NCBI RefSeq assembly: GCF_011045215.1
Contig: NZ_CP049201.1
Strand: one strand, 5' to 3'
DNA length: 64,000 bases
From: Escherichia coli
GTDB lineage: Bacteria > Pseudomonadota > Gammaproteobacteria > Enterobacterales > Enterobacteriaceae
Below, in pieces: positions 1 through 29,302 of the stretch. The translations under genes and the position numbers were made by a program. Positions within the stretch are counted from its first letter, which is position 1. Each line of letters opens with the position of its first letter. The notes below the pieces were generated by a model, which was not told where the DNA came from, did no database searches, and worked only from the letters and a program-made list of their open reading frames with translations.

Positions 1-1
1 T

Positions 2-784
2 ACCACCATTAATCCGGATACCAACGGCGATCTCTCCACGCTCGCCCAGCTTCTTTCCGGCTTTAGCGGTACGGCGGTTGGCGTGGTGAAAGGCGACTGG
101 ATGGCGCTGGTACAGGCGGTTAAAAACGACTCCAGCTCGAACGTTCTCTCCACGCCGAGCATCACCACGCTGGACAACCAGGAAGCCTTCTTCATGGTGG
201 GTCAGGACGTTCCGGTATTAACCGGCTCTACCGTTGGCTCCAATAACAGCAATCCTTTCAATACAGTAGAAAGGAAAAAAGTCGGCATCATGCTGAAAGT
301 CACGCCGCAGATTAACGAAGGTAACGCGGTACAGATGGTGATTGAGCAGGAAGTCTCGAAGGTGGAAGGACAGACCAGCCTCGACGTGGTGTTTGGTGAG
401 CGAAAACTGAAAACCACCGTGCTGGCTAACGATGGTGAACTGATTGTGCTTGGTGGTCTGATGGACGACCAGGCGGGAGAAAGTGTGGCGAAAGTGCCGC
501 TGCTTGGCGATATCCCATTGATTGGTAACCTGTTTAAATCGACGGCGGATAAAAAAGAAAAACGTAACCTGATGGTGTTTATCCGTCCGACCATTCTGCG
601 TGACGGTATGGCGGCAGACGGCGTGTCGCAGCGCAAATATAACTATATGCGCGCCGAACAGATCTATCGCGATGAGCAAGGCTTAAGCCTGATGCCGCAC
701 ACCGCGCAGCCGGTACTGCCAGCGCAAAACCAGGCCTTACCGCCGGAAGTACGTGCGTTCCTTAATGCCGGGAGAACGCGTTAA
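2..784 (+). CDS. gspD: Type II secretion secretin GspD, C-terminal part (5' end lies outside window)
   Basis: Open frame from window start with no stop; conserved secretin C-terminal motifs ([14 protein letters not shown]...); followed directly by gspE with overlapping stop/start. Confidence 0.85.
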
Positions 785-2277
785 TGGTGCCTGTAGCACA
801 GGAAACCACCGCCAACACCGTGCGTCTGCCCTACAGTTTCAGCCGTCGGTTTAGCCTGGTGGCATGGTGCGAAGCGTCGCTGGAGATCCTCCACGTTCAT
901 CCGTTGTCGCTCTCTGTTTTGCAGGAGCTGCAGCGGGGGCTGAACGCGCCCTTTACGCTGCGGCAAATCGACGAGGCCGAATTTGAACAGCGGCTGAATG
1001 CGGTCTGGCAGCGGGACTCTTCCGAGGCCCGCCAGCTGATGGAAGATCTCGGTTCTGCTGAGGACTTTTTTACTCTCGCTGAAGAACTGCCGGAAACGGA
1101 AGATCTGCTGGAAAGCGACGACGACGCGCCAATCATCAAACTGATCAACGCTATGCTGGCAGAGGCGATTAAAGAAGGCGCTTCGGATATTCACATCGAG
1201 ACATTTGAAAAGAGTCTGGTGATCCGTTTTCGTGTTGACGGCACATTACATGAAATGCTGCGCCCGGGGCGCAAACTGGCCTCGCTGCTGGTATCGCGTA
1301 TTAAGGTGATGGCGCGGCTGGATATTGCCGAAAAGCGCGTACCGCAGGATGGGCGTATTGCGCTGCTGCTGGGCGGTCGGGCGATTGACGTGCGTGTCTC
1401 CACCATGCCTTCTGCCTGGGGCGAGCGCGTGGTGCTGCGACTGCTGGACAAAAACCAGGCCCGCCTGACGCTGGAGCGTCTGGGGCTTAGCCAGCAACTG
1501 ACCGCGCAGTTGCGCCAGCTGTTACACAAACCGCACGGCATCTTTCTGGTGACGGGGCCGACGGGTTCCGGCAAAAGCACCACGCTGTACGCCGGATTGC
1601 AGGCGCTGAACAACCATTCGCGCAACATTCTCACGGTTGAAGACCCCATCGAATACATGATTGAAGGGATCGGTCAGACGCAGGTTAACACCCGCGTCGG
1701 CATGACCTTCGCCCGTGGCCTGCGCGCGATTTTGCGTCAGGACCCGGATGTGGTGATGGTCGGTGAAATCCGCGATACCGAAACCGCAGAAATTGCCGTC
1801 CAGGCATCGCTTACAGGGCACCTGGTCCTTTCCACGCTGCATACCAACACGGCGGTGGGGGCGATCACGCGTTTGCAGGATATGGGCGTGGAGCCTTTCC
1901 TGCTCTCTTCCAGTCTGACAGGTGTGATGGCGCAGCGGCTGGTTCGGACGCTGTGTCCCGACTGCCGTCAGGCCGCGCCTGCGACTGACGAAGAAAAACG
2001 CCTGCTGGGAATTACCGACGCCCGTACCGTCACTCTGTACCATCCACAGGGCTGTCCCGCCTGTAATCACAAAGGTTTTCGCGGACGGACTGCCATCCAT
2101 GAGCTGATCGTGGTGGATGCCACATTGCGTGATTTGATCCACCGTCAGGCCGGGGAGCTGGAGCTGGAACGTTATGTCCGACAACACTCTGCGGGTATCC
2201 GCAGTAACGGCATTGAGAAAGTGCTCGCCGGAGAAACCTCTCTCGATGAAGTTCTGCGGGTAACCATGGAGGCGTAA
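784..2277 (+). CDS. gspE: Type II secretion ATPase GspE
   Basis: 497 aa; Walker [10 protein letters not shown], GspE-type C-terminal CxxC pairs (CPDC...CPAC); operon position. Confidence 0.9.
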
Positions 2278-3500
2278 TGGCACTGTTTTACTATCAGGCG
2301 CTGGAGCGTAATGGTCGCAAAACCAAAGGTATGATTGAGGCGGATTCCGCGCGTCATGCCCGCCAGTTGTTGCGCGGTAAAGAGCTTATCCCCGTGCATA
2401 TTGAAGCCCGGATAAATACTTCGTCAGGGGGGATGTTGCAGCGTCGGCGGCACGCACATCGTCGCGTGGCGGCGGCAGATCTGGCGCTGTTCACGCGCCA
2501 ACTGGCAACGTTAGTACAGGCAGCAATGCCGCTGGAAACCTGCTTACAGGCGGTCAGTGAGCAAAGTGAAAAACTGCATGTAAAAAGCCTCGGAATGGCG
2601 CTGCGCAGCCGGATTCAGGAAGGTTACACCCTGTCGGACAGCCTGCGCGAACATCCCCGCGTCTTTGATTCCCTGTTTTGTTCGATGGTGGCTGCCGGAG
2701 AAAAATCCGGGCATCTCGACGTGGTGCTTAATCGCCTGGCGGATTACACCGAACAGCGACAGCGCCTGAAATCACGTCTATTGCAGGCCATGCTCTATCC
2801 GCTGGTTCTGCTGGTGGTGGCAACGGGCGTGGTCACTATTTTGCTGACGGCAGTGGTGCCGAAAATCATCGAACAGTTCGATCACCTCGGACACGCGCTG
2901 CCCGCCACCACCCGCGCGCTTATCGCCATGAGTGACACGTTACAGGACAGCGGCGTTTACTGGCTGGCGGGATTGCTGGGGCTTCTGGTGTTGGGGCAAC
3001 GGCTACTCAAAAATCCTGCGATGCGCCTGCGCTGGGATAAAACCTTGCTGCGCCTGCCTGTGACGGGGCGTGTTGCGCGCGGGCTGAATACGGCGCGTTT
3101 TTCCCGCACATTAAGCATCCTCACCGCCAGCAGTGTTCCGCTACTGGAAGGCATTCAGACCGCTGCCGCCGTGTCGGCAAATCGTTATGTCGAGCAACAA
3201 CTGCTGCTGGCGGCAGATCGCGTCCGCGAAGGAAGCAGTCTGCGCGCTGCGCTGGCGGAGTTGCGCCTGTTCCCCCCGATGATGCTGTACATGATCGCCT
3301 CCGGCGAACAGAGCGGCGAACTGGAAACCATGCTTGAACAGGCCGCAGTTAACCAGGAGCGGGAATTTGATACCCAGGTGGGGCTGGCGTTGGGGCTGTT
3401 TGAGCCGGCGCTGGTGGTGATGATGGCGGGCGTGGTGCTGTTTATCGTCATCGCCATCCTCGAGCCGATGCTGCAACTGAACAATATGGTTGGAATGTAA
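2277..3500 (+). CDS. gspF: Type II secretion inner-membrane platform protein GspF
   Basis: 407 aa, polytopic membrane protein with GspF-like duplicated domains; start overlaps gspE stop. Confidence 0.9.
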   Translation: MALFYYQALERNGRKTKGMIEADSARHARQLLRGKELIPVHIEARINTSSGGMLQRRRHAHRRVAAADLALFTRQLATLVQAAMPLETCLQAVSEQSEKLHVKSLGMALRSRIQEGYTLSDSLREHPRVFDSLFCSMVAAGEKSGHLDVVLNRLADYTEQRQRLKSRLLQAMLYPLVLLVVATGVVTILLTAVVPKIIEQFDHLGHALPATTRALIAMSDTLQDSGVYWLAGLLGLLVLGQRLLKNPAMRLRWDKTLLRLPVTGRVARGLNTARFSRTLSILTASSVPLLEGIQTAAAVSANRYVEQQLLLAADRVREGSSLRAALAELRLFPPMMLYMIASGEQSGELETMLEQAAVNQEREFDTQVGLALGLFEPALVVMMAGVVLFIVIAILEPMLQLNNMVGM

Positions 3501-3516
3501 TTTACGGAGTTATCAC

Positions 3517-3972
3517 ATGAATTCGTTATCCCGCACACAAAAACCACGGGCAGGTTTTACCCTGCTGGAAGTGATGGTGGTGATTGTTATTCTTGGCGTC
3601 CTGGCAAGTCTGGTGGTGCCTAACCTGTTGGGCAACAAAGAGAAAGCCGATCGGCAAAAAGCCATCAGCGATATCGTGGCGCTGGAAAACGCACTGGATA
3701 TGTACCGACTGGATAACGGGCGTTATCCGACCACAGAACAGGGGCTTGAGGCGCTGATCCAGCAACCGGCCAATATGGCGGATTCCCGCAACTACCGTAC
3801 CGGTGGGTACATTAAACGACTGCCAAAAGATCCGTGGGGCAATGATTATCAGTATCTCAGTCCGGGTGAAAAAGGACTGTTTGATGTTTACACCCTGGGG
3901 GCGGATGGTCAGGAAAATGGGGAAGGCGCTGGCGCAGATATCGGTAACTGGAATTTGCAGGAGTTTCAGTAA
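3517..3972 (+). CDS. gspG: Major pseudopilin GspG
   Basis: Prepilin leader and GFTLLEVMVV motif; ATG at 3517 with GGAG 8 nt upstream (ORF track begins at a TTG at 3490). Confidence 0.9.
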   Translation: MNSLSRTQKPRAGFTLLEVMVVIVILGVLASLVVPNLLGNKEKADRQKAISDIVALENALDMYRLDNGRYPTTEQGLEALIQQPANMADSRNYRTGGYIKRLPKDPWGNDYQYLSPGEKGLFDVYTLGADGQENGEGAGADIGNWNLQEFQ

Positions 3973-3975
3973 GCA

Positions 3976-4539
3976 GTGCCTGAACGCGGATTCACACTTC
4001 TGGAAATCATGCTGGTGATTTTCCTTATCGGCCTTGCCAGTGCGGGCGTGGTACAGACGTTTGCGACCGATTCTGAATCGCCCGCGAAAAAAGCGGCGCA
4101 GGATTTTCTGACTCGCTCTGCGCAGTTTAAAGACAGGGCAGTGATCGAAGGGCAGACACTCGGTGTACTAATCGACCCGCCGGGATACCAGTTTATGCAG
4201 CGTCGTCAGGGGCAGTGGTTGCCCGTTTCTGCGACCCGGTTATCGGCACAGGTTACGGTGCCGAAACAGGTGCAGATGCTGTTACAACCCGGAAGTGATA
4301 TCTGGCAGAAGGAATATACGCTGGAGCTGCAACGTCGCCGCCTGACGCTGCACGATATTGAACTGGAGCTGCAAAAAGAGGCGAAAAAGAAGACGCCGCA
4401 GATCCGTTTTTCGCCTTTTGAACCCGGTACGCCGTTTACGCTGCGCTTCTACTCGGCGGCGCAAAACGCATGTTGGGCGGTAAAACTGGCACACGATGGC
4501 GCGTTATCCCTCAATCAATGTGATGAGAGGATGCCATGA
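3976..4539 (+). CDS. gspH: Minor pseudopilin GspH
   Basis: GTG start; N-terminal GFTLLEIMLV prepilin motif; operon position. Confidence 0.8.
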   Translation: MPERGFTLLEIMLVIFLIGLASAGVVQTFATDSESPAKKAAQDFLTRSAQFKDRAVIEGQTLGVLIDPPGYQFMQRRQGQWLPVSATRLSAQVTVPKQVQMLLQPGSDIWQKEYTLELQRRRLTLHDIELELQKEAKKKTPQIRFSPFEPGTPFTLRFYSAAQNACWAVKLAHDGALSLNQCDERMP

Positions 4540-4907
4540 AGCGCGGATTTACCTTGCTGGAAGTGATGCTCGCGCTGGCGATTTTTGCGCTGGCTGCCAC
4601 GGCGGTGTTACAGATTGCCAGCGGTGCGCTGAGTAATCAGCACATTCTTGAGGAGAAAACGGTAGCTGGCTGGGTGGCTGAAAACCAGACCGCATTGCTC
4701 TACCTGATGTCCCGCGAGCAGCGGGCGGTCAGGCATCAGGGCGAGAGCGATATGGCAGGAAGCCGCTGGTACTGGCGAACCACACCGCTGAATACAGGTA
4801 ACGCGCTGCTCCAGGCGGTGGATATTGAAGTCAGCCGTCACGAAGACTTTTCGTCGGTGATTCAGTCACGACGCGCCTGGTTTAGCGCCGTGGGAGGCCA
4901 ACAGTGA
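4536..4907 (+). CDS. gspI: Minor pseudopilin GspI
   Basis: 123 aa, N-terminal GFTLLEVMLA prepilin motif; overlaps gspH stop. Confidence 0.8.
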   Translation: MKRGFTLLEVMLALAIFALAATAVLQIASGALSNQHILEEKTVAGWVAENQTALLYLMSREQRAVRHQGESDMAGSRWYWRTTPLNTGNALLQAVDIEVSRHEDFSSVIQSRRAWFSAVGGQQ

Positions 4908-5509
4908 GAAGGACTCGCGCTGGTTTCACGTTACTGGAAATGCTGGTGGCGATAGCCATTTTTGCCTCGCTGGCACTGATGGCTCAGCAGGTGACAAACG
5001 GCGTCACACGCGTGAATAGCGCCGTCGCCGGACACGATCAAAAACTAAACCTCATGCAGCAAACGATGAGTTTTCTGACCCACGATCTGACCCAAATGAT
5101 GCCGCGTCCGGTAAGGGGCGCTCAGGGCCAGCGTGAACCAGCGTTACTGGCGGGCGCTGGCGTGCTGGCGTCTGAGAGTGAAGGGATGCGCTTTGTACGC
5201 GGCGGCGTGGTTAATCCGTTGATGCGTCTGCCACGCAGTCATCTGCTCACCGTCGGTTACCGCATTCATGACGGTTATCTCGAACGGTTAGCCTGGCCGC
5301 TGACCGACGCAGCTGGCAGTGTGAAGCCAACAACGCAAAAGTTGATTCCGGCGGATTCGCTCCGTTTGCAGTTTTACGACGGCACGCGCTGGCAGGAGAA
5401 CTGGTCATCACTTCAGGCGATCCCAGTGGCGGTGCGCATGACCCTGCATTCGCCGCAATGGGGCGAGATTGAACGCATCTGGTTGTTACGCGGGCCGCAA
5501 TTATCATGA
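4904..5509 (+). CDS. gspJ: Minor pseudopilin GspJ
   Basis: 201 aa, N-terminal GFTLLEMLVA prepilin motif; translationally coupled to neighbours. Confidence 0.8.
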   Translation: MRRTRAGFTLLEMLVAIAIFASLALMAQQVTNGVTRVNSAVAGHDQKLNLMQQTMSFLTHDLTQMMPRPVRGAQGQREPALLAGAGVLASESEGMRFVRGGVVNPLMRLPRSHLLTVGYRIHDGYLERLAWPLTDAAGSVKPTTQKLIPADSLRLQFYDGTRWQENWSSLQAIPVAVRMTLHSPQWGEIERIWLLRGPQLS

Positions 5510-6483
5510 TCACCTCACCACCAAAACGCGGAATGGCACTGGTCGTGGTGCTGGTATTGCTGACGGTCATGATGATGGTAACCATCACGCTTTCCGGGCG
5601 GATGCAGCAACAACTTGGGCGAACGCGCAGCCAGCAGGAGTACCAGCAGGCGCTGTGGTACAGCGCCAGTGCAGAAAGCCTTGCGTTGAGCGCACTCAGT
5701 CTGAGCCTGAAAAATGAAAAGCGCGTGCATCTGGCACAACCGTGGGCTTCTGGCCCTCGTTTTTTCCCACTGCCGCAGGGGCAAATCGCCGTCACTCTGC
5801 GTGACGCACAGGCCTGCTTTAACCTGAATGCCCTCGCTCAGCCGACGACGGCGTCGCGTCCGCTCGCGTTACAACAATTGATTGCCCTGATCTCGCGCCT
5901 CGATGTGCCTGCTTATCGGGCCGAACTGATAGCCGAAAGCCTGTGGGAGTTTATTGATGAAGACCGCAGCGTGCAGACGCGTCTGGGCCGTGAAGACAGC
6001 GAATATCTCGCCCGCTCGGTGCCTTTCTACGCCGCCAATCAACCGCTGGCCGATATCAGCGAGATGCGCGTGGTGCAGGGAATGGACGCCGGGCTTTATC
6101 AAAAACTGAAACCGCTGGTCTGTGCGCTGCCGATGACCCGCCAGCAAATCAACATCAATACTTTAGACGTCACGCAAAGTGTGATTCTTGAGGCGCTGTT
6201 TGACCCGTGGTTAAGCCCTGTTCAGGCGCGGGCGTTATTACAACAACGTCCGGCGAAGGGCTGGGAAGATGTCGATCAGTTTCTTGCACAGCCGCTACTT
6301 GCTGACGTCGATGAGCGTACTAAAAAACAGCTAAAAACCGTCCTGAGCGTGGAAAGCAATTACTTCTGGCTGCGTTCAGATATCACCGTGAATGAGATTG
6401 AACTGACGATGAATTCGTTAATTGTCCGCATGGGCCCACAACACTTTTCTGTTATCTGGCATCAGACAGGAGAAAGTGAGTGA
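5506..6483 (+). CDS. gspK: Minor pseudopilin GspK
   Basis: 325 aa, N-terminal hydrophobic segment, size and position typical of GspK. Confidence 0.75.
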   Translation: MITSPPKRGMALVVVLVLLTVMMMVTITLSGRMQQQLGRTRSQQEYQQALWYSASAESLALSALSLSLKNEKRVHLAQPWASGPRFFPLPQGQIAVTLRDAQACFNLNALAQPTTASRPLALQQLIALISRLDVPAYRAELIAESLWEFIDEDRSVQTRLGREDSEYLARSVPFYAANQPLADISEMRVVQGMDAGLYQKLKPLVCALPMTRQQININTLDVTQSVILEALFDPWLSPVQARALLQQRPAKGWEDVDQFLAQPLLADVDERTKKQLKTVLSVESNYFWLRSDITVNEIELTMNSLIVRMGPQHFSVIWHQTGESE

Positions 6484-7658
6484 GTTCCATCCTTGAGATT
6501 TTTTTCCCACTTTGCGCCGCTAATCCCATCCGTTGGCAGCGCCGTACTCCCGACGTGGAGCACGGTATCTGGCCTGACGTTGCTGACGAACGTCTCCAAC
6601 AATGGCTGCAAACTGATGCGATTCGACTCTACATTCCCGGCGAATGGATCAGCATCTGGCAGGTTGAACTGCCTGATGTCCCTCGCAAGCAGATACCAAC
6701 TATTCTGCCCGCCTTACTGGAAGAAGAGCTGAACCAGGATATCGATGAACTGCATTTCGCCCCGTTGAAAATCGACCAGCAACTGGCAACCGTGGCAGTG
6801 ATTCACCAACAGCATATGCGCAACATTGCGCAGTGGTTGCAGGAAAACGGCATCACCCGCGCTACCGTCGCGCCAGACTGGATGTCTATTCCTTGTGGAT
6901 TTATGGCTGGCGATGCGCAACGGGTTATCTGCCGCATCGATGAATGCCGGGGATGGAGCGCCGGGCGGGCGCTGGCTCCGGTCATGTTCCGCGCCCAGCT
7001 AAATGAGCAGGATTTACCGCTTTCGCTAACCGTAGTCGGCATTGCACCGGAAGAGCTATCAGCATGGGCTGGCGCAGATGCTGAACGCCTGACCGTTACG
7101 GCTCTGCCCGCCATTACCACTTATGGCGAACCGGAAGGGAACCTGCTAACAGGGCCGTGGCAGCCTCGCGTCAGCTACCGAAAACAGTGGGCGCGCTGGC
7201 GAGTGATGATTCTGCCGATATTGCTGATTCTGGTTGCGCTGGCAGTGGAACGGGGCGTGACGTTATGGAGCGTCAGCGAACAGGTGGCGCAAAGCCGCGA
7301 CCAGGCTGAGAAACAGTTCTTAACGTTGTTCCCGGAGCAGAAGCGGATTGTGAATTTACGCTCTCAGGTGACGATGGCGCTGAAAAAATATCGCCCACAG
7401 GCCGACGATACCCGGCTGCTCGCCGAGTTGTCAGCGATAGCCAGCACCCTGAAATCAGCGTCACTTTCCGACATCGAAATGTGTGGTTTCACCTTTGATC
7501 AAAAACGCCAGACGCTTCACCTCCAGTTGCGGGCAGCAAACTTTGCCAGTTTCGACAAACTGCGTAGTGCACTGGCAACCGATTATGTTGTGCAACAGGA
7601 CGCGTTACAGAAAGAAGGTGATGCGGTTTCCGGCGGCGTAATGTTGCGGAGGAAATAA
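6480..7658 (+). CDS. gspL: Type II secretion protein GspL
   Basis: 392 aa, single central TM segment, position between gspK and gspM. Confidence 0.75.
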   Translation: MSSILEIFFPLCAANPIRWQRRTPDVEHGIWPDVADERLQQWLQTDAIRLYIPGEWISIWQVELPDVPRKQIPTILPALLEEELNQDIDELHFAPLKIDQQLATVAVIHQQHMRNIAQWLQENGITRATVAPDWMSIPCGFMAGDAQRVICRIDECRGWSAGRALAPVMFRAQLNEQDLPLSLTVVGIAPEELSAWAGADAERLTVTALPAITTYGEPEGNLLTGPWQPRVSYRKQWARWRVMILPILLILVALAVERGVTLWSVSEQVAQSRDQAEKQFLTLFPEQKRIVNLRSQVTMALKKYRPQADDTRLLAELSAIASTLKSASLSDIEMCGFTFDQKRQTLHLQLRAANFASFDKLRSALATDYVVQQDALQKEGDAVSGGVMLRRK

Positions 7659-7659
7659 C

Positions 7660-8196
7660 ATGTTACGCGATAAATTTATTCACTATTTTCAGCAATGGCG
7701 TGAACGCCAGTTAAGCCGTGGCGAACACTGGCTGGCACAACACCTGGCGGGGCGTTCTCCGCGTGAAAAGGGCATGTTACTGGCAGCGGTGGTGTTCCTG
7801 TTTAGCGTCGGATATTACGTCCTCATCTGGCAGCCGTTGAGCGAACGGATAGAACAACAGGAGACGATGTTGCAGCAGCTGGTGGCAATGAACACCCGAC
7901 TGAAGAACGCCGCGCCGGATATTATTGCAGCGCGAAAATCTGCCACAACAACGCCTGCGCAGGTATCGCGGGTCATCAGTGACAGTGCTTCCGCGCACTC
8001 GGTGGTCATCAGGCGGATAGCCGAGCGTGGGGAGAATATTCAGGTCTGGATAGAACCTGTGGTGTTTAATGACCTGCTGAAATGGTTAAACGCACTGGAT
8101 GAAAAATATGCGCTGCGGGTGACACAAATTGATGTCAGTGCTGCTGAGAAGCCTGGGATGGTGAATGTGCAGCGGCTGGAGTTTGGACGGGGGTAA
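7660..8196 (+). CDS. gspM: Type II secretion protein GspM (K-12 YghD-like)
   Basis: 178 aa, N-terminal TM helix, last gene of operon; sits 148 bp from the tRNA-Phe remnant, matching my recollection of the K-12 yghD-pheV spacing. Confidence 0.75.
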   Translation: MLRDKFIHYFQQWRERQLSRGEHWLAQHLAGRSPREKGMLLAAVVFLFSVGYYVLIWQPLSERIEQQETMLQQLVAMNTRLKNAAPDIIAARKSATTTPAQVSRVISDSASAHSVVIRRIAERGENIQVWIEPVVFNDLLKWLNALDEKYALRVTQIDVSAAEKPGMVNVQRLEFGRG

Positions 8197-8222
8197 AGTA
8201 TCAGGAGATTAATATCAATAAC

Positions 8223-8251
8223 ATTACTCTCGTTAACGTGGCGAGAGTAAT
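8223..8251. other. Perfect 10-bp inverted repeat (ATTACTCTCG / CGAGAGTAAT, 9-nt loop) after gspM
   Basis: Read directly; no U-run follows, so function as terminator is unproven. Confidence 0.3.
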
Positions 8252-8299
8252 TCCCCCAGACTTTATAAGCTAATTTTTTTCGTGAAGGTTATTGTCAGA

Positions 8300-8332
8300 T
8301 CCAAAAGCAAAAACCCGCCTTGTGGGCGGGTT
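8300..8332 (-). terminator. Rho-independent terminator downstream of the tRNA-Phe remnant
   Basis: GC stem CCCGCC/GGCGGG (8314-8330) followed on the minus strand by TTTTGCTTTTGG. Confidence 0.5.
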
Positions 8333-8343
8333 CTTAAGAATTA

Positions 8344-8362
8344 GTGGTGCCCGGACTCGGAA
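8344..8362 (-). repeat. 19-nt remnant of the tRNA-Phe 3' end (attachment-site core); not an intact tRNA
   Basis: TGGTGCCCGGACTCGGAAT is the reverse complement of the last 19 nt of E. coli tRNA-Phe including CCA; the match stops at nt 20. Confidence 0.65.
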
Positions 8363-8550
8363 TGAAACTGGTTATATAACCAATTGTTTTGTATTGACTG
8401 TTTTGCCTTTGCTGTTTTCGGGGCCACCAATGAGGCCCCCATGTGCAATTCGAATTCTTTTGACGCTATAATCCCTCTTTTTTGTGCTTTGCTGTAATCA
8501 TTTTGTCTGGTTCGATGTGTTGATGCGCGGAGTCGTACTTAACGCATTTG

Positions 8551-9498
8551 TTAGCTGGTCAGAACACTCAATGCTGTTTGTCTGAAACAGGAGTAGGCTT
8601 CTTCCCAGTCAATCTGTGTATTACCAAATACCATCGGTTTAACAAACCGTTGAAAACGCAATTTGTGTACAGGATCATCCCGGAGTGCATCCAGCCCTTT
8701 CTTAAGTTCATCAACTGGTGAGCTACAAAATTGTGGGTACTGGTTACCATAGCGTTCAATATCCTGTTGAATACATATCTGAACAAAATTTTTCAATACA
8801 GGAACATTCACACCTTTTTCCCTGACAATGCAGTAGTTGTCGTAAATGTGACGTACCAGGAACTCATCATCCTGTTGTTCGGGATTACGAAGATGTGCTG
8901 CTGTTCTTCGCATCATGGAGATGAGCTTTTCAGCCTGAGTGGACAAAATGGTGGCACAGGGGAATGCTGTTACAGGTGTACCTTTACCCGTTAACTCCGT
9001 GACAAGTGAATAAATATCTCTGCTTTCCGGATGTTCCAGCAGGGTGCTTTCCATCAACTCCAGCTTAATAAATGGACGAAGACAGGGGACTTGCGCAAAT
9101 GTCTGGGGATAACGTACCGAGATTTCGTTATAACGATACTCATCACGTGTTATACGGGCGTTTTCATTATCCAGGCTGAAAATGTCAGAATTATTAATAA
9201 CATCCGTGATTATTTGCACGATTTTCTTGCGAATTTTTCTTCTCTTGTCTCTGCCATTTTGCATAAAGTTCTCTGTTGGCACGAGCTTTATATCAATATC
9301 TTCTGACATTCTGTTCAATGAGATACCTGCTTTTGACAATGCGGTACCTCCTGCAAACACGAGAGTATGTGTTTCTGGTTTTATTTCTTTTAGTAACTTT
9401 AAAAGATTAACCACAAAATAATCTTTTTCGACGATAGCGACAGATTCAATATCCAGTGCGTTGGCAACGTCAGGAAATAATGATGTTAATTCAGGCAT
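8551..9498 (-). CDS. AbiEii-family nucleotidyltransferase (toxin of an AbiE-type TA/abortive-infection pair)
   Basis: 315 aa with the GGTAL...R.SEDIDI nucleotidyltransferase signature; overlaps the upstream AbiEi-like gene by 8 nt. Confidence 0.7.
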   Translation of the reverse strand: MPELTSLFPDVANALDIESVAIVEKDYFVVNLLKLLKEIKPETHTLVFAGGTALSKAGISLNRMSEDIDIKLVPTENFMQNGRDKRRKIRKKIVQIITDVINNSDIFSLDNENARITRDEYRYNEISVRYPQTFAQVPCLRPFIKLELMESTLLEHPESRDIYSLVTELTGKGTPVTAFPCATILSTQAEKLISMMRRTAAHLRNPEQQDDEFLVRHIYDNYCIVREKGVNVPVLKNFVQICIQQDIERYGNQYPQFCSSPVDELKKGLDALRDDPVHKLRFQRFVKPMVFGNTQIDWEEAYSCFRQTALSVLTS

Positions 9499-9886
9499 TG
9501 ATTTTACTTTTCCCTACAACTAACACTCTTTTAAAGCGAGGAGGTGTTTTGAACTCCGGAGACACCGGAATCTGTGTGGACTGACCTTTATTGTAGCATT
9601 CTGTTGCGCCGATCAAGCTGTATCTGATATTCAAAAGATCCAGGGCTTCGGTGATTACAGCAGCAGAGCCACCAGGTGCTGCAGGCATTATTTTTCCTGT
9701 AATAACGTTGCGACGGGCTTTGGTGTAAACACCATAGCCCACCTTCATCAACTTACCTTCGTTTACCAGTGTACGAAGAGCTCTGCCAACCTGATCATAG
9801 CCAGCGATATCCCTGAAGTCATCCCGGGTGAACACATAACGCTTTGAACGGTTCAGTCGGGACTGAATACGGTCTTTTGTAGTCAT
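9491..9886 (-). CDS. AbiEi-family antitoxin / winged-helix regulator
   Basis: ~131 aa from the ATG at 9886 (GGAGG upstream); wHTH-like N-terminus; operon partner of the AbiEii gene. Confidence 0.55.
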   Translation of the reverse strand: MTTKDRIQSRLNRSKRYVFTRDDFRDIAGYDQVGRALRTLVNEGKLMKVGYGVYTKARRNVITGKIMPAAPGGSAAVITEALDLLNIRYSLIGATECYNKGQSTQIPVSPEFKTPPRFKRVLVVGKSKINA

Positions 9887-9954: not shown

Positions 9955-10803
9955 TTACCTTTCGGTCAATACATTTGGATAGTATTTCTCAATAATATCA
10001 TTAAGCCTGTCAACCAGTTCTGGTTTCCTGAACGTGATGTGTGCGGAGCCCTTCTTAAAGTATCTGATGCTGAACATCTTATCTTCATAGTCCTCTTTAC
10101 CCTGAACAGACTGGATGTGGTCATCCAGATGAATGGTGATGTTTTCCCGGTTGTCGGGGATCGGTTTGCCGCTGAACAGATACAGCATTCTTTCCAGGTC
10201 GGCAAGTCGATCTGCCTGTTGCCCGGTGATAAGATGAAACCCCCACCGGTCCCATCTCACCAGATTGTTGACGATAATTTTACTGCCAAATTTGCAGGGT
10301 GAGTTGGTTTTGTAATCCCAGCTCAGTCCCCTGAAGACGTTGATCACCCCTCGCTCAAACACCTCATCCTTATTCTGGTGCAGTTGTTCAAATGTGCTCA
10401 GGATATTCGCTTCACTGATTTCCGGAAAATTATCATATTCCAGTGACCGGTACCATGTATCACGGGCCTGTGCATCCATTAAGGACAGCATCCCGGAGCG
10501 TTGCATCAGGTCACGCCAGATTTCGCGGTCAAGATTCCGGGTAATGGCTTTCATTGCCGTTTCAGGTTTCTCCATCAGCCAGCAACCGCAGCGAAAATCC
10601 TGTTTCATGGCCCAGTCCAGAGCAGTTTTACCGCCAATACTTTCTGTCATTGCTGATATTTCTGCCAGTTGCCGGATAAGTGTGTCGATTTGCAGCAGCG
10701 TACTCTTTCGTACAGCCAGAATGTGGCGGATACTGGTTGAGCAGATAACGTCCATATGCCCGTTGACCACTTCCGGACGGGGGATTGTGATATCTGACAT
10801 CAT
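9955..10803 (-). CDS. Conserved island protein (DUF4942-like by recollection)
   Basis: 282-aa ORF with coding-like composition, lying downstream of the CbtA/CbeA module as in many E. coli islands; family name not verifiable here. Confidence 0.5.
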   Translation of the reverse strand: MMSDITIPRPEVVNGHMDVICSTSIRHILAVRKSTLLQIDTLIRQLAEISAMTESIGGKTALDWAMKQDFRCGCWLMEKPETAMKAITRNLDREIWRDLMQRSGMLSLMDAQARDTWYRSLEYDNFPEISEANILSTFEQLHQNKDEVFERGVINVFRGLSWDYKTNSPCKFGSKIIVNNLVRWDRWGFHLITGQQADRLADLERMLYLFSGKPIPDNRENITIHLDDHIQSVQGKEDYEDKMFSIRYFKKGSAHITFRKPELVDRLNDIIEKYYPNVLTER

Positions 10804-10884
10804 CGGTTTTCCTTCTTGTCTGTAAATGAAAAGGCCAGCCGTGTTCAGGCTGGCGTCAGTGGAATGAAGTCTGGTGAGTGAGAC

Positions 10885-11082
10885 TCACCGGTTCTGGTGC
10901 AGAAGCTGCAACTGGCGCAGTGTACGGATATCTTCCCTGGCCTGTTCAATGCAGGGCAGCAGTGCTGCCGAATCCGTTTTATCCTCATCGTTGTCAAAGA
11001 TAATTCCCGATTCGCAGTCGATATTGTCCTGCAGCCACGCAATCAGAATATCCAGCGCTGTTTCCGTGGTTAATGATTTCAT
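10885..11082 (-). CDS. Small hypothetical protein (YeeW-like position)
   Basis: 65 aa from internal Met MKSLTTETALDIL...; conserved position after the toxin module. Confidence 0.35.
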   Translation of the reverse strand: MKSLTTETALDILIAWLQDNIDCESGIIFDNDEDKTDSAALLPCIEQAREDIRTLRQLQLLHQNR

Positions 11083-11093
11083 GTTGTTTCTGG

Positions 11094-11582
11094 TTACCAG
11101 TCGAAAGTGGGTAAACCCGGCAGGCATTCAGCGCTGGCATCCAGATGAATGAGACTGACGCCATAACGTCGGGTAAGTGTGACAACCAGACGACGGAACG
11201 TTTTTGACAGGCCCAGGCGCTTAAGCCGCAGAACCGGGTATGACCACGCATCGGTACGTAACAGATATCCGCTACCTGTGAAATGAATCCATTCTGATTC
11301 GCCGGTGTCATTCGTCTGATGTGACAGCGAGTACAGCCAGGCGTTGTCCTTTTCCGTGATATGTGCGGTACTGCAGCGTATGCCGGTAAGGGCAGCAAAT
11401 GGTGGCGTGCAGTCTGCTGAGGTCCGGTCAGATTCATCAACAACACGAAGGGAGTAGCCGTTATCGCAGACCATGTTAATCAGTTCAGCGAGCTCAATAC
11501 CATCAACGTCAACGACAATGCGCCCCATGTTCAGTGCCTGCACGTTAATGCTGTCGGCTTCCAGCGTCAGGGCCAGTTTCAT
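11094..11582 (-). CDS. Hypothetical protein co-transcribed with the cbtA-like toxin
   Basis: 162 aa; its ATG overlaps the toxin stop codon (ATGA overlap). Confidence 0.5.
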
Positions 11583-11956
11583 TGTTTCGCCCCCGGATGT
11601 TTACCCTGGGTAATGTTATTTACCGTTCTGTAGTTGTCGCGTGTCATCAGGCCGGTTGCCCGGCGTGCCCGGAGGATATCGATGCTGTTTATTAACTGAG
11701 AACGGGTACAGGCGCTGAATCCCGGCTGGTCGGTACGCACCAGCGCGTATTTTTCCACGAGAAAGTTCACCGCATCACACAGTGAAATGCCAGCTTCAAT
11801 ATGCTGCTCAATCACACGTTCATCAGCGAACGGTGTGTCATTCAGTGTGAGACCGTAATGCTGGTCCAGCAGTCGGGTGAGCAGTGTCTGCCAGATGGTG
11901 ACGGGAGACGGGCAGCGCGATGCCTCCCGTACGTGTGTGTCAGGTAATGTTTTCAT
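11579..11956 (-). CDS. cbtA: CbtA/YeeV/YpjF-family toxin (cytoskeleton-targeting, type IV TA)
   Basis: 125 aa from MKTLP...; long near-identical stretches to recalled YeeV ([52 protein letters not shown]...). Confidence 0.85.
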
Positions 11957-12002
11957 CTTAAGTTCTCTGTAACTGGTAGTGCTAAAGGTGAGATATTCGG
12001 GG

Positions 12003-12377
12003 TTATGAGGTGGTTGCGGGTGCCAGTGTCGAATAAACAGCCATATAAACGTAACCACAGCTGCCGAGGGTGTCGGCTTCGCAGGTCAGCCCTCTGGCAT
12101 ACAGCGTGACGGTATGCTGATGGCGGGGATTCAGTTCACCGCTGGTGAGCATGAGTTCCAGTTGTTTCATCAGCAGCGGAAAGGCCTGGTCCAGATGATA
12201 CGCATCCGCGTCGCTAAACTGCCCCCTGATACCGGCGCGGTCGGCAAGGTAATGCAATTGATTGCCCTCCTGCACCAGACGTGCCCCGAAACAGGGCGTC
12301 ACGGTGCAGGGGAGCCCCCACCAGGGGCGGTCGTTGTTGTCGTTGGGATAATTTGTCACATGGAGTGTGTCTGACAC
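12003..12377 (-). CDS. cbeA: CbeA/YeeU/YfjZ-family antitoxin
   Basis: 124 aa; [23 protein letters not shown]...GELNPRHQH motif block; immediately upstream of the toxin. Confidence 0.85.
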
Positions 12378-12452
12378 GATAAAATCCTCACAAAAAAATC
12401 AGTTAAGAATGGTCCGGTGGCAGCGATAATTCTGCTCATCATTTCTCCTGAC

Positions 12453-12674
12453 TCAGTTCAGTGTGACGCTCATCAGCCGGACATACGGGCCAAAACTGTC
12501 CTTACGGCGTTCTGCAAACACGGCCAGCACACCGGGAATATCCTGCACTTCACGACCGGTATACGCCTCAGCACTGCCGTGCCAGCGGTATTTGCCGGTA
12601 CAGAACGGAAAAAGACGGGATGCAGGATGTTGTTGGTGAATACGCATGGCTTCACCACGGGTGATAATTTTCAT
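12453..12674 (-). CDS. yeeT: YeeT-like small protein (DUF987)
   Basis: 73 aa, MKIITRGEAMRIHQQHP... essentially as recalled for YeeT. Confidence 0.75.
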   Translation of the reverse strand: MKIITRGEAMRIHQQHPASRLFPFCTGKYRWHGSAEAYTGREVQDIPGVLAVFAERRKDSFGPYVRLMSVTLN

Positions 12675-12742
12675 GGTGGGATACCTCTGAAGACAGAAGA
12701 TAAAAGTGAAAACAGGTGTGATGTGGTTGTGACGGTGACGGG

Positions 12743-13219
12743 TTAAAGCAGACCGTGTTCCGCAAAGGAGAAAACCTGGTTGCCTCCGACTATCAGATGG
12801 TCCGGCACCCGGATGTCCACCAGGGCCAGCGCCTGTACCAGACGTTCGGTGATAAGCCGGTCTGCCTTACTGGGTGTGACTTCACCGGACGGATGATTGT
12901 GTGCCAGCACCACGGCTGCGGCATTGTGATACAGGGCGCGTTTAATCACTTCCCGGGGATGGACTTCCGTGCGGTTGATAGTGCCGGTGAAGAGGGTTTC
13001 ACCGGCAATCAGCTGATTCTGGTTATTCAGATACAGCACCCGGAATTCTTCACGCTCCAGTCCCGCCATGTTCAGAATCAGCCATTCCCGTGCCGCATGC
13101 GTGGAGGTGAAGGCCACGCCGGGTTCATGAAGATGGCGGTCCAGGGTTTTCAGGGCCCGCTGAATGAGACTGCGCTCGCCGGGCGTCATCTCTCCGGGCA
13201 GAAAGGAAAGCTGTTGCAT
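12743..13219 (-). CDS. RadC-like JAB/MPN-domain protein (YeeS/YfjY family)
   Basis: HNHPSG JAB metalloprotease motif; ATG at 13219 (ORF track extends to 13234). Confidence 0.8.
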   Translation of the reverse strand: MQQLSFLPGEMTPGERSLIQRALKTLDRHLHEPGVAFTSTHAAREWLILNMAGLEREEFRVLYLNNQNQLIAGETLFTGTINRTEVHPREVIKRALYHNAAAVVLAHNHPSGEVTPSKADRLITERLVQALALVDIRVPDHLIVGGNQVFSFAEHGLL

Positions 13220-13234
13220 TGCCCCTGCCTCCAT

Positions 13235-13720
13235 TCAGTCGATGATGCGCATAATGGCGCTGCATTCCGGATGTTGCAGGGCGTAATCCCGCAACCGATA
13301 ATAATGGACCGTCATGGCATAACACTCCGTACGACAGGCATGATGACTGTACGTCATCAGACAGGCGGCAATGCCGGCGGCTTCCGGACTCATTTCAGCG
13401 CGGTTACCGTTCATGGCATTGAACAGTACCCATGTTTCGTCATCATCGTCATCCGGTTCGGGTGCCATAAATGCCCCGCCGTTGTTCAGGGTGTACAGAT
13501 TCCAGATACCACCGCAGTAGTCTTCGCACAGACGGTCCATCCAGCCGAAGACACGGGGTTCCAGGGTCACCCACTGTGGAATGAGGCCAAAGTGCTGCGG
13601 CCAGAAGCTGATGCGCTGTTCATCAGGGACGGGAGTGGCAACCAACTGAGACTGGTTATTCCCTGATGCAGTAGTTACGGAAACAGAAGGTGTGGTGGAG
13701 CTATGCGAAAAGGTTGTCAT
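13235..13720 (-). CDS. Antirestriction protein (YfjX/KlcA-like)
   Basis: 161 aa, acidic stretch EPDDDDDETW, conserved position upstream of the RadC-like gene. Confidence 0.7.
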   Translation of the reverse strand: MTTFSHSSTTPSVSVTTASGNNQSQLVATPVPDEQRISFWPQHFGLIPQWVTLEPRVFGWMDRLCEDYCGGIWNLYTLNNGGAFMAPEPDDDDDETWVLFNAMNGNRAEMSPEAAGIAACLMTYSHHACRTECYAMTVHYYRLRDYALQHPECSAIMRIID

Positions 13721-13811
13721 GAGATGATTCCTTATAAAAAGTAAATGAATGGAAGAATGCCTGGGGATTGGTACAGACGTGAGTCAGGGCTGCACTTTCA
13801 GGGAAACAGCA

Positions 13812-14630
13812 TTAGCGCATGCTCTCCAGCAGCGTTTCTGCCATCACCCACAATGCGCGATTGAGCTTAATGTCCGTGTCGATGCTGTGAATGGCACGGG
13901 TGTGGATACGTTTTCCTTTAGCGCTGCGACCGGAAATTCCGCCTTTCAGCATATTCTCCTGAATGGTCTGATAAGCACTCCACAGGTCCTTACCGTAATC
14001 CTCCCTGCGTCGTGGTGTCAGAATGTCGGCGGTGGTGACGGGCTGATGTTCGTCACCATAACGGTAAGTCAGTGCCGCCTGTGCCAGCGCCTGGTGTGCC
14101 GGTGGCGGCAGAATCAGCGACTGCATGGCATCACGCTTTTCCTCAATCCGGTCAAAAACCCCCACCACCTCGTAAGCCCCTTCAATAACTTTCTCCACCA
14201 CATTTCCCCGGTGTGGAACACGCAATTCTCCCAGAGACTGACCGCAGACCAGTCCATTGGTACAAATGGCACGAAAATATCCGGGTAACATCTGGTAGCT
14301 GGATGAACCGTCATGGGAGTTGAGCAGAATAATTTCAGGGACATGCTGACCGGTTATCTGTCCGGCCCGCCGTAGACGCAGCATGTGTTTTGTGTATTCC
14401 CGGCGGCTCTGGTCGCGCACGCGGGTCTGGCAGGCAAAGAACGGCTGAAAGCCTTCCTTCTGCAGACTTTCCAGCACGGTGATGGTGGGGATCCAGGTAT
14501 AGTTCTCGCTTCTGGATGTGTGCTTATCTTCCCCGAATACGCTGGGAACGACCTGTATCAGTTCTTCGCGAGTTAAGGGGCGATCACGGCGTATCTGGTT
14601 TGCATAACCAAAACGACTTGCTAATCGCAT
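13812..14630 (-). CDS. DUF932-family protein (YfjQ/YafZ-like)
   Basis: 272 aa; size and position in the conserved module. Confidence 0.65.
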   Translation of the reverse strand: MRLASRFGYANQIRRDRPLTREELIQVVPSVFGEDKHTSRSENYTWIPTITVLESLQKEGFQPFFACQTRVRDQSRREYTKHMLRLRRAGQITGQHVPEIILLNSHDGSSSYQMLPGYFRAICTNGLVCGQSLGELRVPHRGNVVEKVIEGAYEVVGVFDRIEEKRDAMQSLILPPPAHQALAQAALTYRYGDEHQPVTTADILTPRRREDYGKDLWSAYQTIQENMLKGGISGRSAKGKRIHTRAIHSIDTDIKLNRALWVMAETLLESMR

Positions 14631-15016
14631 GATTTGCTCCTTATGAATGAGTTAGCGATATAAATGAAAAAGCCGCGTCTTGCGGAGAAGACGCGGCCTG
14701 ATGGGTGAAATGAATGACGTTTATTGTCTGAGAAACCCTTCACTGGCGAGCCACACATTAAGCTGTTTTCCGGCGTCAGACTCAAAATTCCAGCACCGCC
14801 AGCGTAGCTGCCCTTCAGCATTACGGATAACCCGCCGGAAATGCGTTCCCTGGTCATTTTCGATAAACACATTGCAGTAAGCTGTTGTGATGGTAAGTGC
14901 CTGTTCGCGAGAGAAGGACTTTCGGGTAGTAAACGGGACATATGTTTTGCAGAAGAAATCAGAGAAAAACGCCACCAGTACGGTGGCGCCAGTAATGAAA
15001 TAAATACAAGGATATA

Positions 15017-15556
15017 TTACTGAGGTGAGTTATCCCGGGGACGGGAGTCAGGCTCACCATAAATTATCCGGTGTTTTGCCAGCGATTCCGGCATGGTATT
15101 AATACAGTAATTGATGTAGAAAATGTGAAATAAAAATGTCCATACCGGATTCATTTTTAATTCAAAGCGGAACTGTGTCAGCGCATATTGTTGCAGAGCC
15201 GTTCTGGCTCTGAAAGCCCAGATGATGGTGAGGATAATCCAGACCAGTGAGATCAGCGTGGCAATGCCGTACATGGTTTCAGCACCGCGGCTGTAACCAT
15301 AGACGTCACCGTATTCGTCGATCTGAACCGGAAAAGCCATTTTCAGCATGGCGGATATTCCCAGGCATACTGCCATCCAGATAATCATTGCAGGAGAGGA
15401 GAATCGCTGACGGGTTTCATCCATGATGGTATCCTGATATTTATACAGCCACATCAGTGGATAAACACCATATGTGGCGGCTCCCAGTAATACCAGATGC
15501 CATGTGGATGTATTCAGTTTTTCTTTTAACGATGAAATAGTGGAATCATTCATCAC
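15017..15556 (-). CDS. Hypothetical inner-membrane protein
   Basis: 179 aa with about four hydrophobic helices; no family recognised. Confidence 0.45.
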
Positions 15557-15615
15557 GGTTTCCTTATCATTAATTACGTGTGTGGAATTTTCAGAAATAA
15601 AATATTGTGTTGTTT

Positions 15616-16917
15616 TTAGCGGACTGCTTCTCCTCTCACAGTGTAACCTTCAATAAAATTAGCCATATCCTCGTTGTCTTTGTGGCTGTTGTCAGGGAAC
15701 TGCTCAATGGCGAACAATTCAGAGAAAGTATTTCTGCAGTTCAGGGTGGCAATCCGGGTTCCCTGGTTAAACACGAGAATGCCATCAAATGCCGGTGTTT
15801 CTCCGTCGTAGCGCTGCACAACCACATAGTCGTATGAACCTTTATGAAAACGCAGATATTTCAGTTTTCCTTTACCCCGGTTAAGATCGCGCCAGTAATG
15901 AAAGGCACTGACGCCAAACATACCTTCTTTTAATTCCAGCTCCAGCGTGCCGTCTTTTTTGAGAAGGTGGTAGGTGTAGGGAAAACCATCCTGTGCAAGA
16001 ACAGACAGAGCCTTACCGTTTGTGAGCGTACAGTCTGCCAGTGCTGTCGCCGGGATCGCAGATTGCGAATCAGGTGCTGCTGGCCTGGCTTTTTCCGGTT
16101 CAGGGGGATTTTGCTCCCCGGACCCGGTATCGGTTTTCCCGGGAGAAGTGACGGTGGCATCGTAAGCCGGCGTCTGAATACGTGTATCCGGTGGATTGTT
16201 ATCGGCGTCATTAAAACGCTTTGTCGTTGATGAATAGCCTGCCTGTTCGTTGGTGTAGCCGCCTGTAGGCATCCGTGATTTCTTACGCCATTCTCCATTC
16301 ACTTTTTCATACCCGGATTCTGTCATCATCCGTTCCTGCAGACTGGTGATTTCTGTTTCAGGGGAGTGCGGTTGCCTGTCCCCGGAATACAGAAACTCGT
16401 CCAGTGTCATCTTTTTGTTCTTCCGGGTATCCGTGTGGATGAGAGATTTCGGAATAAATGTCTTACAGGCTTCGGTGAAGTTACCTTTACGGAAAGTGGC
16501 CGTTTTCCCTTCAATGGTAACGGTTGCTCCCATGAAGTGTGTGAAAGCCGGTATGGCACGGGCTGCCATATCCGGCGCTGCACGGGGGGTATCCCCCAGC
16601 GTCACCATTCTGCGAAATCCCGTGGCGCTGTTACATACCATGAGAGATTTCCAGGTCTGGTCGTTGATTCTGGTAGTGATAAAGCGGGTTCCCGGAAAAT
16701 CGAGATTATCCGGACATCCCTTGTCCATGCTCATAAAAACCATACCTTCATCAGAAATGAGGGCAGTTTCATTTCCTTCACTACTGATGGCCTGGCATGC
16801 GCCGTTTCTGATTTCCCAGTTGTCGGTAAAATAGTCGCAACCGGTAAGAACGGATATTGCCGAAGCTATCATCAGGGAATGACGTAATACCCGCATGTTC
16901 AGTTTTTTGTTCAGCAT
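15616..16917 (-). CDS. Hypothetical lipoprotein
   Basis: 433 aa; signal peptide ending in lipobox LTGC; Pro/Thr-rich linker in the middle. Confidence 0.5.
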   Translation of the reverse strand: MLNKKLNMRVLRHSLMIASAISVLTGCDYFTDNWEIRNGACQAISSEGNETALISDEGMVFMSMDKGCPDNLDFPGTRFITTRINDQTWKSLMVCNSATGFRRMVTLGDTPRAAPDMAARAIPAFTHFMGATVTIEGKTATFRKGNFTEACKTFIPKSLIHTDTRKNKKMTLDEFLYSGDRQPHSPETEITSLQERMMTESGYEKVNGEWRKKSRMPTGGYTNEQAGYSSTTKRFNDADNNPPDTRIQTPAYDATVTSPGKTDTGSGEQNPPEPEKARPAAPDSQSAIPATALADCTLTNGKALSVLAQDGFPYTYHLLKKDGTLELELKEGMFGVSAFHYWRDLNRGKGKLKYLRFHKGSYDYVVVQRYDGETPAFDGILVFNQGTRIATLNCRNTFSELFAIEQFPDNSHKDNEDMANFIEGYTVRGEAVR

Positions 16918-16959
16918 ATTGTCTCCATACCTGTCGGAACGGCTTTGGCAGGCCGGCGA

Positions 16960-17640
16960 TCACAGGTTAAAGGTGTTGATAAGTTTATGGATGAAAGGGA
17001 AATGTGGCAGAGCGGAGATAAAACGCTCTTCAGCGACCAGACTGTGGATGTGGTCTCTCCGTTCAAACCGTTCTGATGTCAGGCTGACCGATTTGATGTC
17101 TGCCAGGGGAAAGACCCGCAGTTTTTCCTTCTGTAACGCGATCAGATACCAGCTTCCGCTGTAATAAATGAGCCGGCAGGGTTCCAGTGACGGATACCAT
17201 TGCTCAGTCACCAGCGAGATGTGGATGCACTGTCTTATTGCCAGGATGAGTTGCGAGAAACACTCGGGGAGTGTTGCAGTGATATCCGGCGCCGGTAGCC
17301 AGATAAGGCAGGGAGAGGGCTCCTGGTTGTCGGTAAGACAGGTTATCAGTCGTCCGTTCCGGAGCGGAAGTATCCGTGCGATCCCCGTATTCTGTATAAA
17401 TGAAAGCATTTCAGGGAGCGCGCCCGGGTTGCTCTGCCGTCTGAGACTGTACCGGCCATTTCTGTACTCTAAGTCCAGGTGAACCAGACGCTGATGAAAA
17501 TCGCGCTGTAAGGTACGTTCTGTAACACCAAATTCATCTGACAGTGTTTTTAGTGACAGAGATTCTCCGGCCATCAGTCGGCTGATAATGAGTGATAAGC
17601 GAACCGCCAGGCGATCATGCCGGGAACGATTATCAGACAT
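16960..17640 (-). CDS. HTH plus WYL-like domain transcriptional regulator (YfjR-like)
   Basis: 226 aa; N-terminal HTH (LKTLSDEFGVTERTLQRD), C-terminal WYL-like segment (YYSGSWYLIA). Confidence 0.65.
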   Translation of the reverse strand: MSDNRSRHDRLAVRLSLIISRLMAGESLSLKTLSDEFGVTERTLQRDFHQRLVHLDLEYRNGRYSLRRQSNPGALPEMLSFIQNTGIARILPLRNGRLITCLTDNQEPSPCLIWLPAPDITATLPECFSQLILAIRQCIHISLVTEQWYPSLEPCRLIYYSGSWYLIALQKEKLRVFPLADIKSVSLTSERFERRDHIHSLVAEERFISALPHFPFIHKLINTFNL

Positions 17641-17842
17641 AGATGTGTACTCCGTAAGAAAACATCTTTTATTTCATGATGTTATTATGCATCATGATGT
17701 TGAAAGGATGTGTCGTATCCGAATCATCAGGAATAAAATGCAGCAGAAAAAATATTCCTTTAATTATCTGATTTTTAAGCAGGGTCTCATAAAAAGAAGA
17801 ATGCTTGTTAATCCAGCGACACATCCTGTCGGCGTGAGTGTG

Positions 17843-18727: not shown

Positions 18728-18911
18728 ACCGTTATCCTGTTGATTTCGCTGAACCGGATCACACTAATCCGGTTTATCATTCATGTAATATGGACGTGAA
18801 AAATGATGGAATGTCTGAATTACGGACATGATTGTTAAAGTGTAATGGAGTATGAAGTGAGTTTTTCCGAACGGGAACTAATGACATACTGCGGTTTCAG
18901 GAGATGAGAGG

Positions 18912-22308: not shown

Positions 22309-22389
22309 ACCCGGTAAAATGGCATCCGGTGCCTGAGCATACGTCACGTAATTAACTGTCTTGACCAACAAAATTATGGAGTAACCTGA

Positions 22390-23042
<653 letters not shown>

Positions 23043-23064
23043 TATTGCCCATTCTTGCTAATGT

Positions 23065-23102
<38 letters not shown>

Positions 23103-28072: not shown

Positions 28073-28140
28073 AAACACGGCTCAGCATCTTTCCCCGCAT
28101 TCGCACAACCTTCATAAATCTTACAGAGGATATTCTGACC

Positions 28141-29204: not shown

Positions 29205-29302
29205 CTGCCACATCTGATTTCGGGTGTGTTTCGGCAAGGTTGTTCAGTAAGGCATTCCTTCGTAAAATCAGCCTGTTTTTTGCACGACGGAAACCGGCAG
29301 CC

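Follow-up and report, generated by a model that had tools for sequence, protein, structure and literature searches.

The DNA analyzed here is a stretch of 64,000 nucleotides of Escherichia coli, referred to below as the window, and its features are collected in Table 1. It begins within the core genome, in the operon for a chromosomal type II secretion system, passes through a short intergenic spacer into the last nucleotides of a gene for tRNA-Phe, and from there runs through a long series of accessory genes to its right end. Since the open reading frame (ORF) of gspM/yghD stops at position 8196, 148 nt (8197-8344) separate it from the tRNA-derived sequence, and in K-12 the distance between pheV (which ends at 3110441) and yghD (which starts at 3110590) is likewise 148 nt.

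Table 1. Features identified in the 64,000-nt window, with positions counted from its first nucleotide
Feature	Position	Strand	Basis or remarks
Chromosomal type II secretion (T2SS-beta, gsp) operon	1-8196		Whole stretch left of the spacer
gspM/yghD, last gene of the T2SS-beta operon, core-genome flank of pheV	7660-8196	+	ORF list; yghD/GspM annotation in matching genomes
Native pheV-yghD spacer, 148 nt, one mismatch to K-12	8197-8344		Alignment; K-12 coordinates
Native pheV intrinsic terminator, hairpin then T-run, now apart from the tRNA body	8308-8336	-	Terminator scan; fold; K-12 identity
Very probable attR core, a perfect copy of the last 19 nt of tRNA-Phe	8345-8363	-	Minus strand reads ATTCCGAGTCCGGGCACCA
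Non-coding terminal arm of the island	8364-8550		Matches ending at 8535 in many genomes; repeats
AbiEii toxin (8551-9498) and AbiEi-like antitoxin (9491-9886), first island genes	8551-9886	-	PADLOC E = 4.7e-125 and 7.3e-51; Pfam AbiEii and DUF6088 in relatives
'yee' backbone module: DUF4942, DUF957, YeeW (DUF5983), CbtA toxin, CbeA antitoxin, YeeT (DUF987), RadC/JAB, antirestriction protein, DUF932	9955-14630	-	ORFs; annotation and Pfam of collinear relatives
DUF905, DUF4234, 433-aa protein, WYL/HTH regulator, YeeP-type GTPase (17843-18727, minus), then 376-aa protein (plus)	14700-20042
Backbone: Gp2/YfjJ-like proteins, YfjI family (23479-25083), AlpA-family HTH (~28141-28374)	21577-29204	+
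Cargo: 970-aa ankyrin/UvrD-like helicase protein, MFS transporter, M20 aminoacylase, 774-aa AraC-type regulator, EAL-domain protein	29240-39878
ISEc8 (IS66 family): tnpC, tnpB, tnpA	40242-42575	-
Chaperone-usher fimbrial operon: PapB-like regulator, subunits, usher (45053-47629), chaperone; then three ~315-aa paralogous ORFs	43293-53483	+
Polysaccharide deacetylase, GT4 glycosyltransferase, VirK/DUF535, DUF4056, AraC regulator	54177-61568	+
ibrA (PAPS-reductase-like, 62207-63451) and ibrB, cut by the window end	62207-64000	+

The plus strand of the window at 8345-8363 (TGGTGCCCGGACTCGGAAT) is the exact reverse complement of nt 58-76 of pheV of K-12 (the reference copy being L003, 2867-2942), which on the tRNA strand gives TTTCATTCCGAGTCCGGGCACCA, a perfect core of the 19-bp class. 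Aligned with K-12, the window differs at one position in the segment that starts in gspM, crosses the spacer with its terminator and ends at the nineteenth nucleotide from the 3' end of the tRNA. The pheV terminator, a hairpin of 12 pairs followed by a T-run that extends from 8336 to 8308 on the minus strand, folds as expected and is identical to that of K-12. In a four-way alignment, the window and K-12 diverged completely to the right of the 19 tRNA nucleotides, whereas the island-bearing strains E24377A and AHM21C2872I still matched the window beyond the point at which K-12 broke off. When imperfect matches are also counted, 21 of the last 23 nt of the tRNA agree with K-12 (TTTC versus TTCG before the core). 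The original prediction, which was made from the sequence alone, had placed the final 19 nt of tRNA-Phe on the minus strand 148 bp past gspM, with a native-looking terminator behind them and with identity to the tRNA stopping at nt 20. These particulars proved to be exact, the alignment with an empty pheV site (K-12 or L028, a strain whose GspL protein is identical to that of the window) breaking at precisely that nucleotide.

The 19-mer occurs once in the 64-kb window even when up to three mismatches are allowed, the number expected by chance being 0.03, and a chance match is in any case irrelevant for this copy because its position is homologous to the K-12 site. No intact tRNA was found by ARAGORN in the 64 kb, including immediately beside the junction, as only nt 58-76 of the 76-nt cloverleaf are present, and an Rfam scan of 8000-8800 gave nothing above threshold, its two sub-threshold hits being driven by the terminator hairpin. 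A match to the 5' end of the tRNA at 41388-41403 (16 nt, all but one identical) was rejected as a chance similarity (E = 0.2) inside the transposase gene of ISEc8.

Comparison of the sequences to either side of the core in different genomes was particularly informative. At the empty site, in K-12 and L028, the left flank CTTAAGAATTAG and the core are followed by CGAACC..., i.e., by the rest of an intact tRNA. In the window and in L001, L002, L021 and L023, the flank CTTAAGAATTAG, which all pheV loci share, and the core are followed instead by GAAACTGGTTATATAACC. The pheU-linked loci L004, L018 and L022 and an IncF plasmid (L020) have the core and the same island arm GAAACTGGTTATATAACC but another left flank, in which the 12 nt that precede the core are TTGATATGAATT or TTTATATGAATT. 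The BLAST similarity of the pheU-linked and plasmid copies to the window begins exactly at 8345, and at the pheU-linked loci the same AbiEii gene adjoins cadC. At the far end of the island in ETEC4085 (L026) the order is island sequence, core and then the rest of the tRNA. The left flank thus varies by locus while the core and ~190 bp to its right travel together, which is the signature of an attR site. The core with its arm (8345-8550) was found in 1113 of the 5426 complete E. coli genomes, at one to three copies each. One further locus, H57, proved to represent the asn-tRNA/CP4-44 region and not pheV.

Based on these comparisons, 8345-8363 very probably represents the attR core of a GI-pheV-type genomic island that was moved by a tyrosine recombinase of the P4 type. 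The insertion lies at the 3' end of pheV with its junction at the att core boundary, the core and island end behave as a mobile unit with differing chromosomal flanks, and what follows is an accessory mosaic of deviating composition with mobility genes. We also considered that pheV was cut by an unrelated insertion or deletion, such that the 19 nt are a leftover stump with no site-specific integration involved. Seen locally, just 19 nt of pheV are left and a partner copy is not visible in the window, as such an event would leave them, but the break falls at exactly the nucleotide that bounds the att core of islands in more than 1000 genomes, and at the pheU-linked loci and on the plasmid this core and arm have other left flanks. 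On those two grounds a plain truncation of pheV was excluded, and we regard the stump explanation as scarcely credible. The prediction that this is the integrase-distal junction of an island in the 3' end of pheV was therefore upheld, given that the break is the att core boundary and that core and arm recur with other flanks. Its description of tRNA-Phe as "reduced" was apt insofar as 19 nt are present, but these are better viewed as a duplicated att core that has retained the native terminator, the gene itself being regenerated at the other end.

The non-coding arm to the right of the core has several features that would be in keeping with a role in recombination. These include a perfect 14-bp palindrome (TGGTTATATAACCA) located 5 nt past the core, a GGGGCC-N8-GGCCCC hairpin, a further palindrome (AATTCGAATT) and two copies of CTTTGCTGT, which form short direct repeats, and from the sequence we consider these palindromes and repeats to be candidate protein-binding sites. 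The segment ~8364-8535 is common to islands in which the next genes differ, e.g., ParDE in AHM21C2872I versus AbiE here, and its conservation next to differing cargo fits a functional recombination arm, presumably one carrying binding sites for the integrase or its accessory proteins. A search for k-mers common to the attR arm and the attL arm of ETEC4085 gave nothing convincing, with one shared 8-mer.

Assuming the attR assignment to be correct, the island would have been acquired by recombination, catalyzed by its integrase, between the attP site of a circular island and the last 19 bp of chromosomal pheV (attB). Integration would duplicate the 19 bp, with one copy completing the tRNA beside the integrase gene (attL) and the other keeping what originally lay downstream of the gene, from the terminator and the 148-nt spacer to gspM (attR). 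The island would then extend rightward from 8364 through the non-coding arm, the AbiE pair, the 'yee' module and the mosaic cargo with its insertion sequence (IS) elements, and the intact pheV and integrase would be expected beyond 64000, where the island sequence adjoining the core would be of the CTTTCACTTCCA type. As judged by sequence comparison, a complete attB, attL and attR set can be assembled across K-12 and L028, ETEC4085 and the window, respectively, the window itself containing only attR. The orphaned pheV terminator probably now ends the leftward transcription of abiE, and the toxin-antitoxin modules are likely to stabilize the island.

The far junction of an island at pheV is an ordinary, well-described arrangement that is present in about one-fifth of complete E. 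coli genomes. GI-pheV has been surveyed in complete E. coli genomes, including the islands PAI-I CFT073 and those of EC958 and E24377A (PLoS Genet 2024; PMC11537424). In that survey, the direct repeats derived from the 3' end of pheV measured 19 bp in 10 strains and 23 bp in 16, and the core class of the window is among those given for GI-pheV (Table 1 of PMC11537424). The same study found that the integrase gene intP4, immediately adjoining pheV, is the only conserved gene of GI-pheV, that yee, flu and ibr are recurring modules, and that the islands range from 9.7 to 110 kb, those that retain attR having a mean of 75 kb and quartiles of 52-87 kb (PMC11537424). The island in the window resembles these in its pheV site, in an attR of the 19-bp class beside native downstream sequence, in its integrase-distal yee module, in its ibr module and in being a mosaic separated by IS elements, and its length (>55.6 kb) is typical of GI-pheV islands that retain attR. 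It differs from the UPEC intP4.1 islands, whose core has a G-to-T substitution (TTTCATTCCGATTCC...), and from the many other islands in which the core has a 1-nt deletion, the core of the window being perfect. Membership of the 19-bp class would predict an integrase that is intP4.1-like or of the E24377A type. Nothing new about islands at tRNA genes is learned from the window, since the pheV repeat of 19 bp, the neighboring integrase of the P4 type and the distal yee module have all been published, and the kind of feature is already known, with just this mosaic being unrepresented among complete genomes.

The DNA from 8364 to 64000 is accessory and horizontally acquired. Its G+C content, in 2-kb steps, is 38-57% as opposed to 55-57% in the gsp operon, and its cargo is common to islands at selC and pheU and to plasmids. 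In K-12, the cryptic prophage-like elements CP4-44, CP4-57 and CP4-6 have the same yee/yfj/ykf backbone genes (GTPase, DUF932, antirestriction protein, RadC, CbeA/CbtA, YfjI and Gp2-like proteins). Those elements occupy different sites, are far smaller and have largely decayed. Because the window end cuts ibrB, the island must continue beyond 64000, and because its cargo runs from 8364 to 64000 with neither a tRNA nor an integrase, the island is at least 55,637 bp long with its integrase end outside the window. A tblastn search with the P4-type integrase of E24377A found no homologue in the window (best E = 0.01). The claim that the integrase end lies outside the window was accordingly corroborated, with no tRNA, second core or P4-type integrase up to 64000 and with the cargo uninterrupted. 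For the annotation of this genome, the value of the junction is that it places the left edge of a large accessory island at 8345/8363, with cargo to the right of 8364 that includes defence and toxin-antitoxin modules, a fimbrial operon, shf/capU/virK-like genes and ibrAB, and that it tells where the integrase is to be sought.

The pheV islands of E24377A and ETEC4085 share with the window the left flank, the terminal arm, the AbiEii/AbiEi pair and the yee module, with 94.8-96.6% identity across the junction and a collinear backbone to ~29 kb of the window, the junction and approximately the first 20 kb being common to all three. Past the AlpA-like gene the cargo differs, with raffinose and sucrose genes in E24377A and restriction-modification and other genes in ETEC4085. 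Both relatives could be traced to the far end, and both have an intact integrase there. In ETEC4085, in the orientation of the window, the integrase (856827-858017, minus strand) is followed by the intact tRNA-Phe (858194-858269, minus strand), then yqgA and speC, and this tRNA/integrase end is ~54.4 kb from its attR; an internal integrase fragment is also present. For E24377A, the reported GI-pheV is 101,767 bp in length, starting at 3,325,510 and ending at 3,427,276, with the attR TTTTATTCCGAGTCCGGGCACCA (PMC11537424). The core that we located in this genome is at the same coordinate, 3,427,276. Its integrase is beside a 48-nt copy of the 3' end of pheV, 29.9 kb from attR, and an SPI-7-type element is farther out. 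When IbrA, AbiEii, the 774-aa regulator and GspL were looked up individually, the hits were relatives with 97.5-99.7% identity. The contig of the closest relative, L038, ends at the equivalent of ~54 kb of the window, and in another relative (contig ADIM01000019.1) ibrAB is missing after the AraC gene. An exact search with a 70-mer from the window end gave no match among species-representative genomes. This combination of cargo at pheV was found in none of the 5426 complete E. coli genomes, where the best match at any one locus took in 75% of 8300-33000, with 92.9% identity.

Among complete E. coli genomes, the only match to the right half of the island is the IncF "plasmid A" of the bovine strain C5 (NZ_CP010123.1, 214 kb), which is 99.2% identical to the window over 39500-64000. 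The plasmid segment, at ~119-193 kb of NZ_CP010123.1 (L005, L020 and L024), has the same overall gene order as the window back to AbiEii, an identical core and, for core plus arm, 99.5% identity. It is unlike the window in that a P4-like integrase of 421 aa, and not the pheV terminator, directly follows the attR core. At the other end of the plasmid segment there are IS elements and plasmid backbone (RepB, ParM and CcdAB), with no integrase or tRNA, so that the cargo of 39.5-64 kb alone is no guarantee of a canonical far end. The similarity suggests that tRNA-Phe islands are exchanged between chromosome and plasmid. A stronger version of this idea, namely that the window holds an undescribed GI-pheV mosaic of at least 55.6 kb, the adhesin, fimbrial and ibrAB half of which is shared with an IncF plasmid through recent traffic of a whole island between chromosome and conjugative plasmid, is very doubtful in our estimation. 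If true, capture by a plasmid would be a transfer route for islands that are unable to transfer themselves.

These relatives also bear on what is to be expected beyond 64000. It is possible, rather than probable, that the island of the window is the outermost element of a tandem or composite array, in which case the next copy of the core would be a partial tRNA-Phe beside an integrase, with one or more further elements before the intact pheV. E24377A has exactly this layout, consisting of an SPI-7-type element, the 48-nt pheV copy, an integrase and an island of 30 kb that shares its distal end with the window, and both the internal integrase fragment of ETEC4085 and the C5 plasmid, where the attR core directly adjoins another integrase, point the same way. 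Against an array, no internal att remnant, second core copy or integrase remnant was found across the 55.6 kb of island in the window. Such an array is a variant of the attR explanation and does not contradict it. It is unlikely, by our assessment, that the island is degraded and immobilized, having kept attR but lost the integrase, attL or both through disruption by IS elements or rearrangement. The many IS elements would be consistent with degradation (ISEc8 is at 40.2-42.6 kb, and relatives have IS66, IS3 and IS110 just past ibrB), as would the C5 pheU island, which has no integrase near the expected place, and the 12 of 91 ST131 islands that are without a full-length intP4 (PMC11537424). 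Arguing against it, the core here is perfect, compared with a 1-nt deletion in each of the cores of ETEC4085 and L019, and the two relatives followed to the far end both retained their integrase. Furthermore, intP4 was the sole coding sequence conserved in 41 of 41 manually identified islands, although that set was chosen by the presence of an integrase gene beside pheV (PMC11537424).

Several other observations were made on the gsp flank and on genes of the island. The gsp operon (1-8196) is at most 98.8% identical to that of any complete E. coli genome, and typically ~97.5%. Either this locus varies to an unusual degree or the lineage of the source has few representatives. The loci L027-L034, which encode exactly the GspL protein of the window, have very different occupants at pheV. 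In L028 and 12 similar places pheV is unoccupied, while other strains with the identical GspL have a TacA/acetyltransferase pair and two ~1250-aa proteins, or islands with EAL-domain and autotransporter genes. The variety of these occupants points to rapid turnover at the site within a single gsp allele.

Within the island, 28641-32152 encodes a 187-aa protein (UCP030791 family) followed by the 970-aa protein, which has ankyrin repeats and a UvrD-like helicase core and gave weak PADLOC hits to the GajB, Nhi and AbiO helicase models (best E = 4.6e-12). On the strength of these similarities the two genes may be an uncharacterized defence pair. Directly downstream of the fimbrial operon, the tandem paralogous ORFs at 50579-53483 (319, 319 and 314 aa) matched no Pfam, NCBIfam or PADLOC family, and relatives have two or three copies of varying lengths. 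Lastly, the 774-aa AraC-type regulator (35928-38252) gave a full-length match to the Staphylococcus AryK model that fell short of the curated cut-off (E = 2.6e-93), and its gene adjoins divergently oriented genes for the M20 aminoacylase and the MFS transporter.
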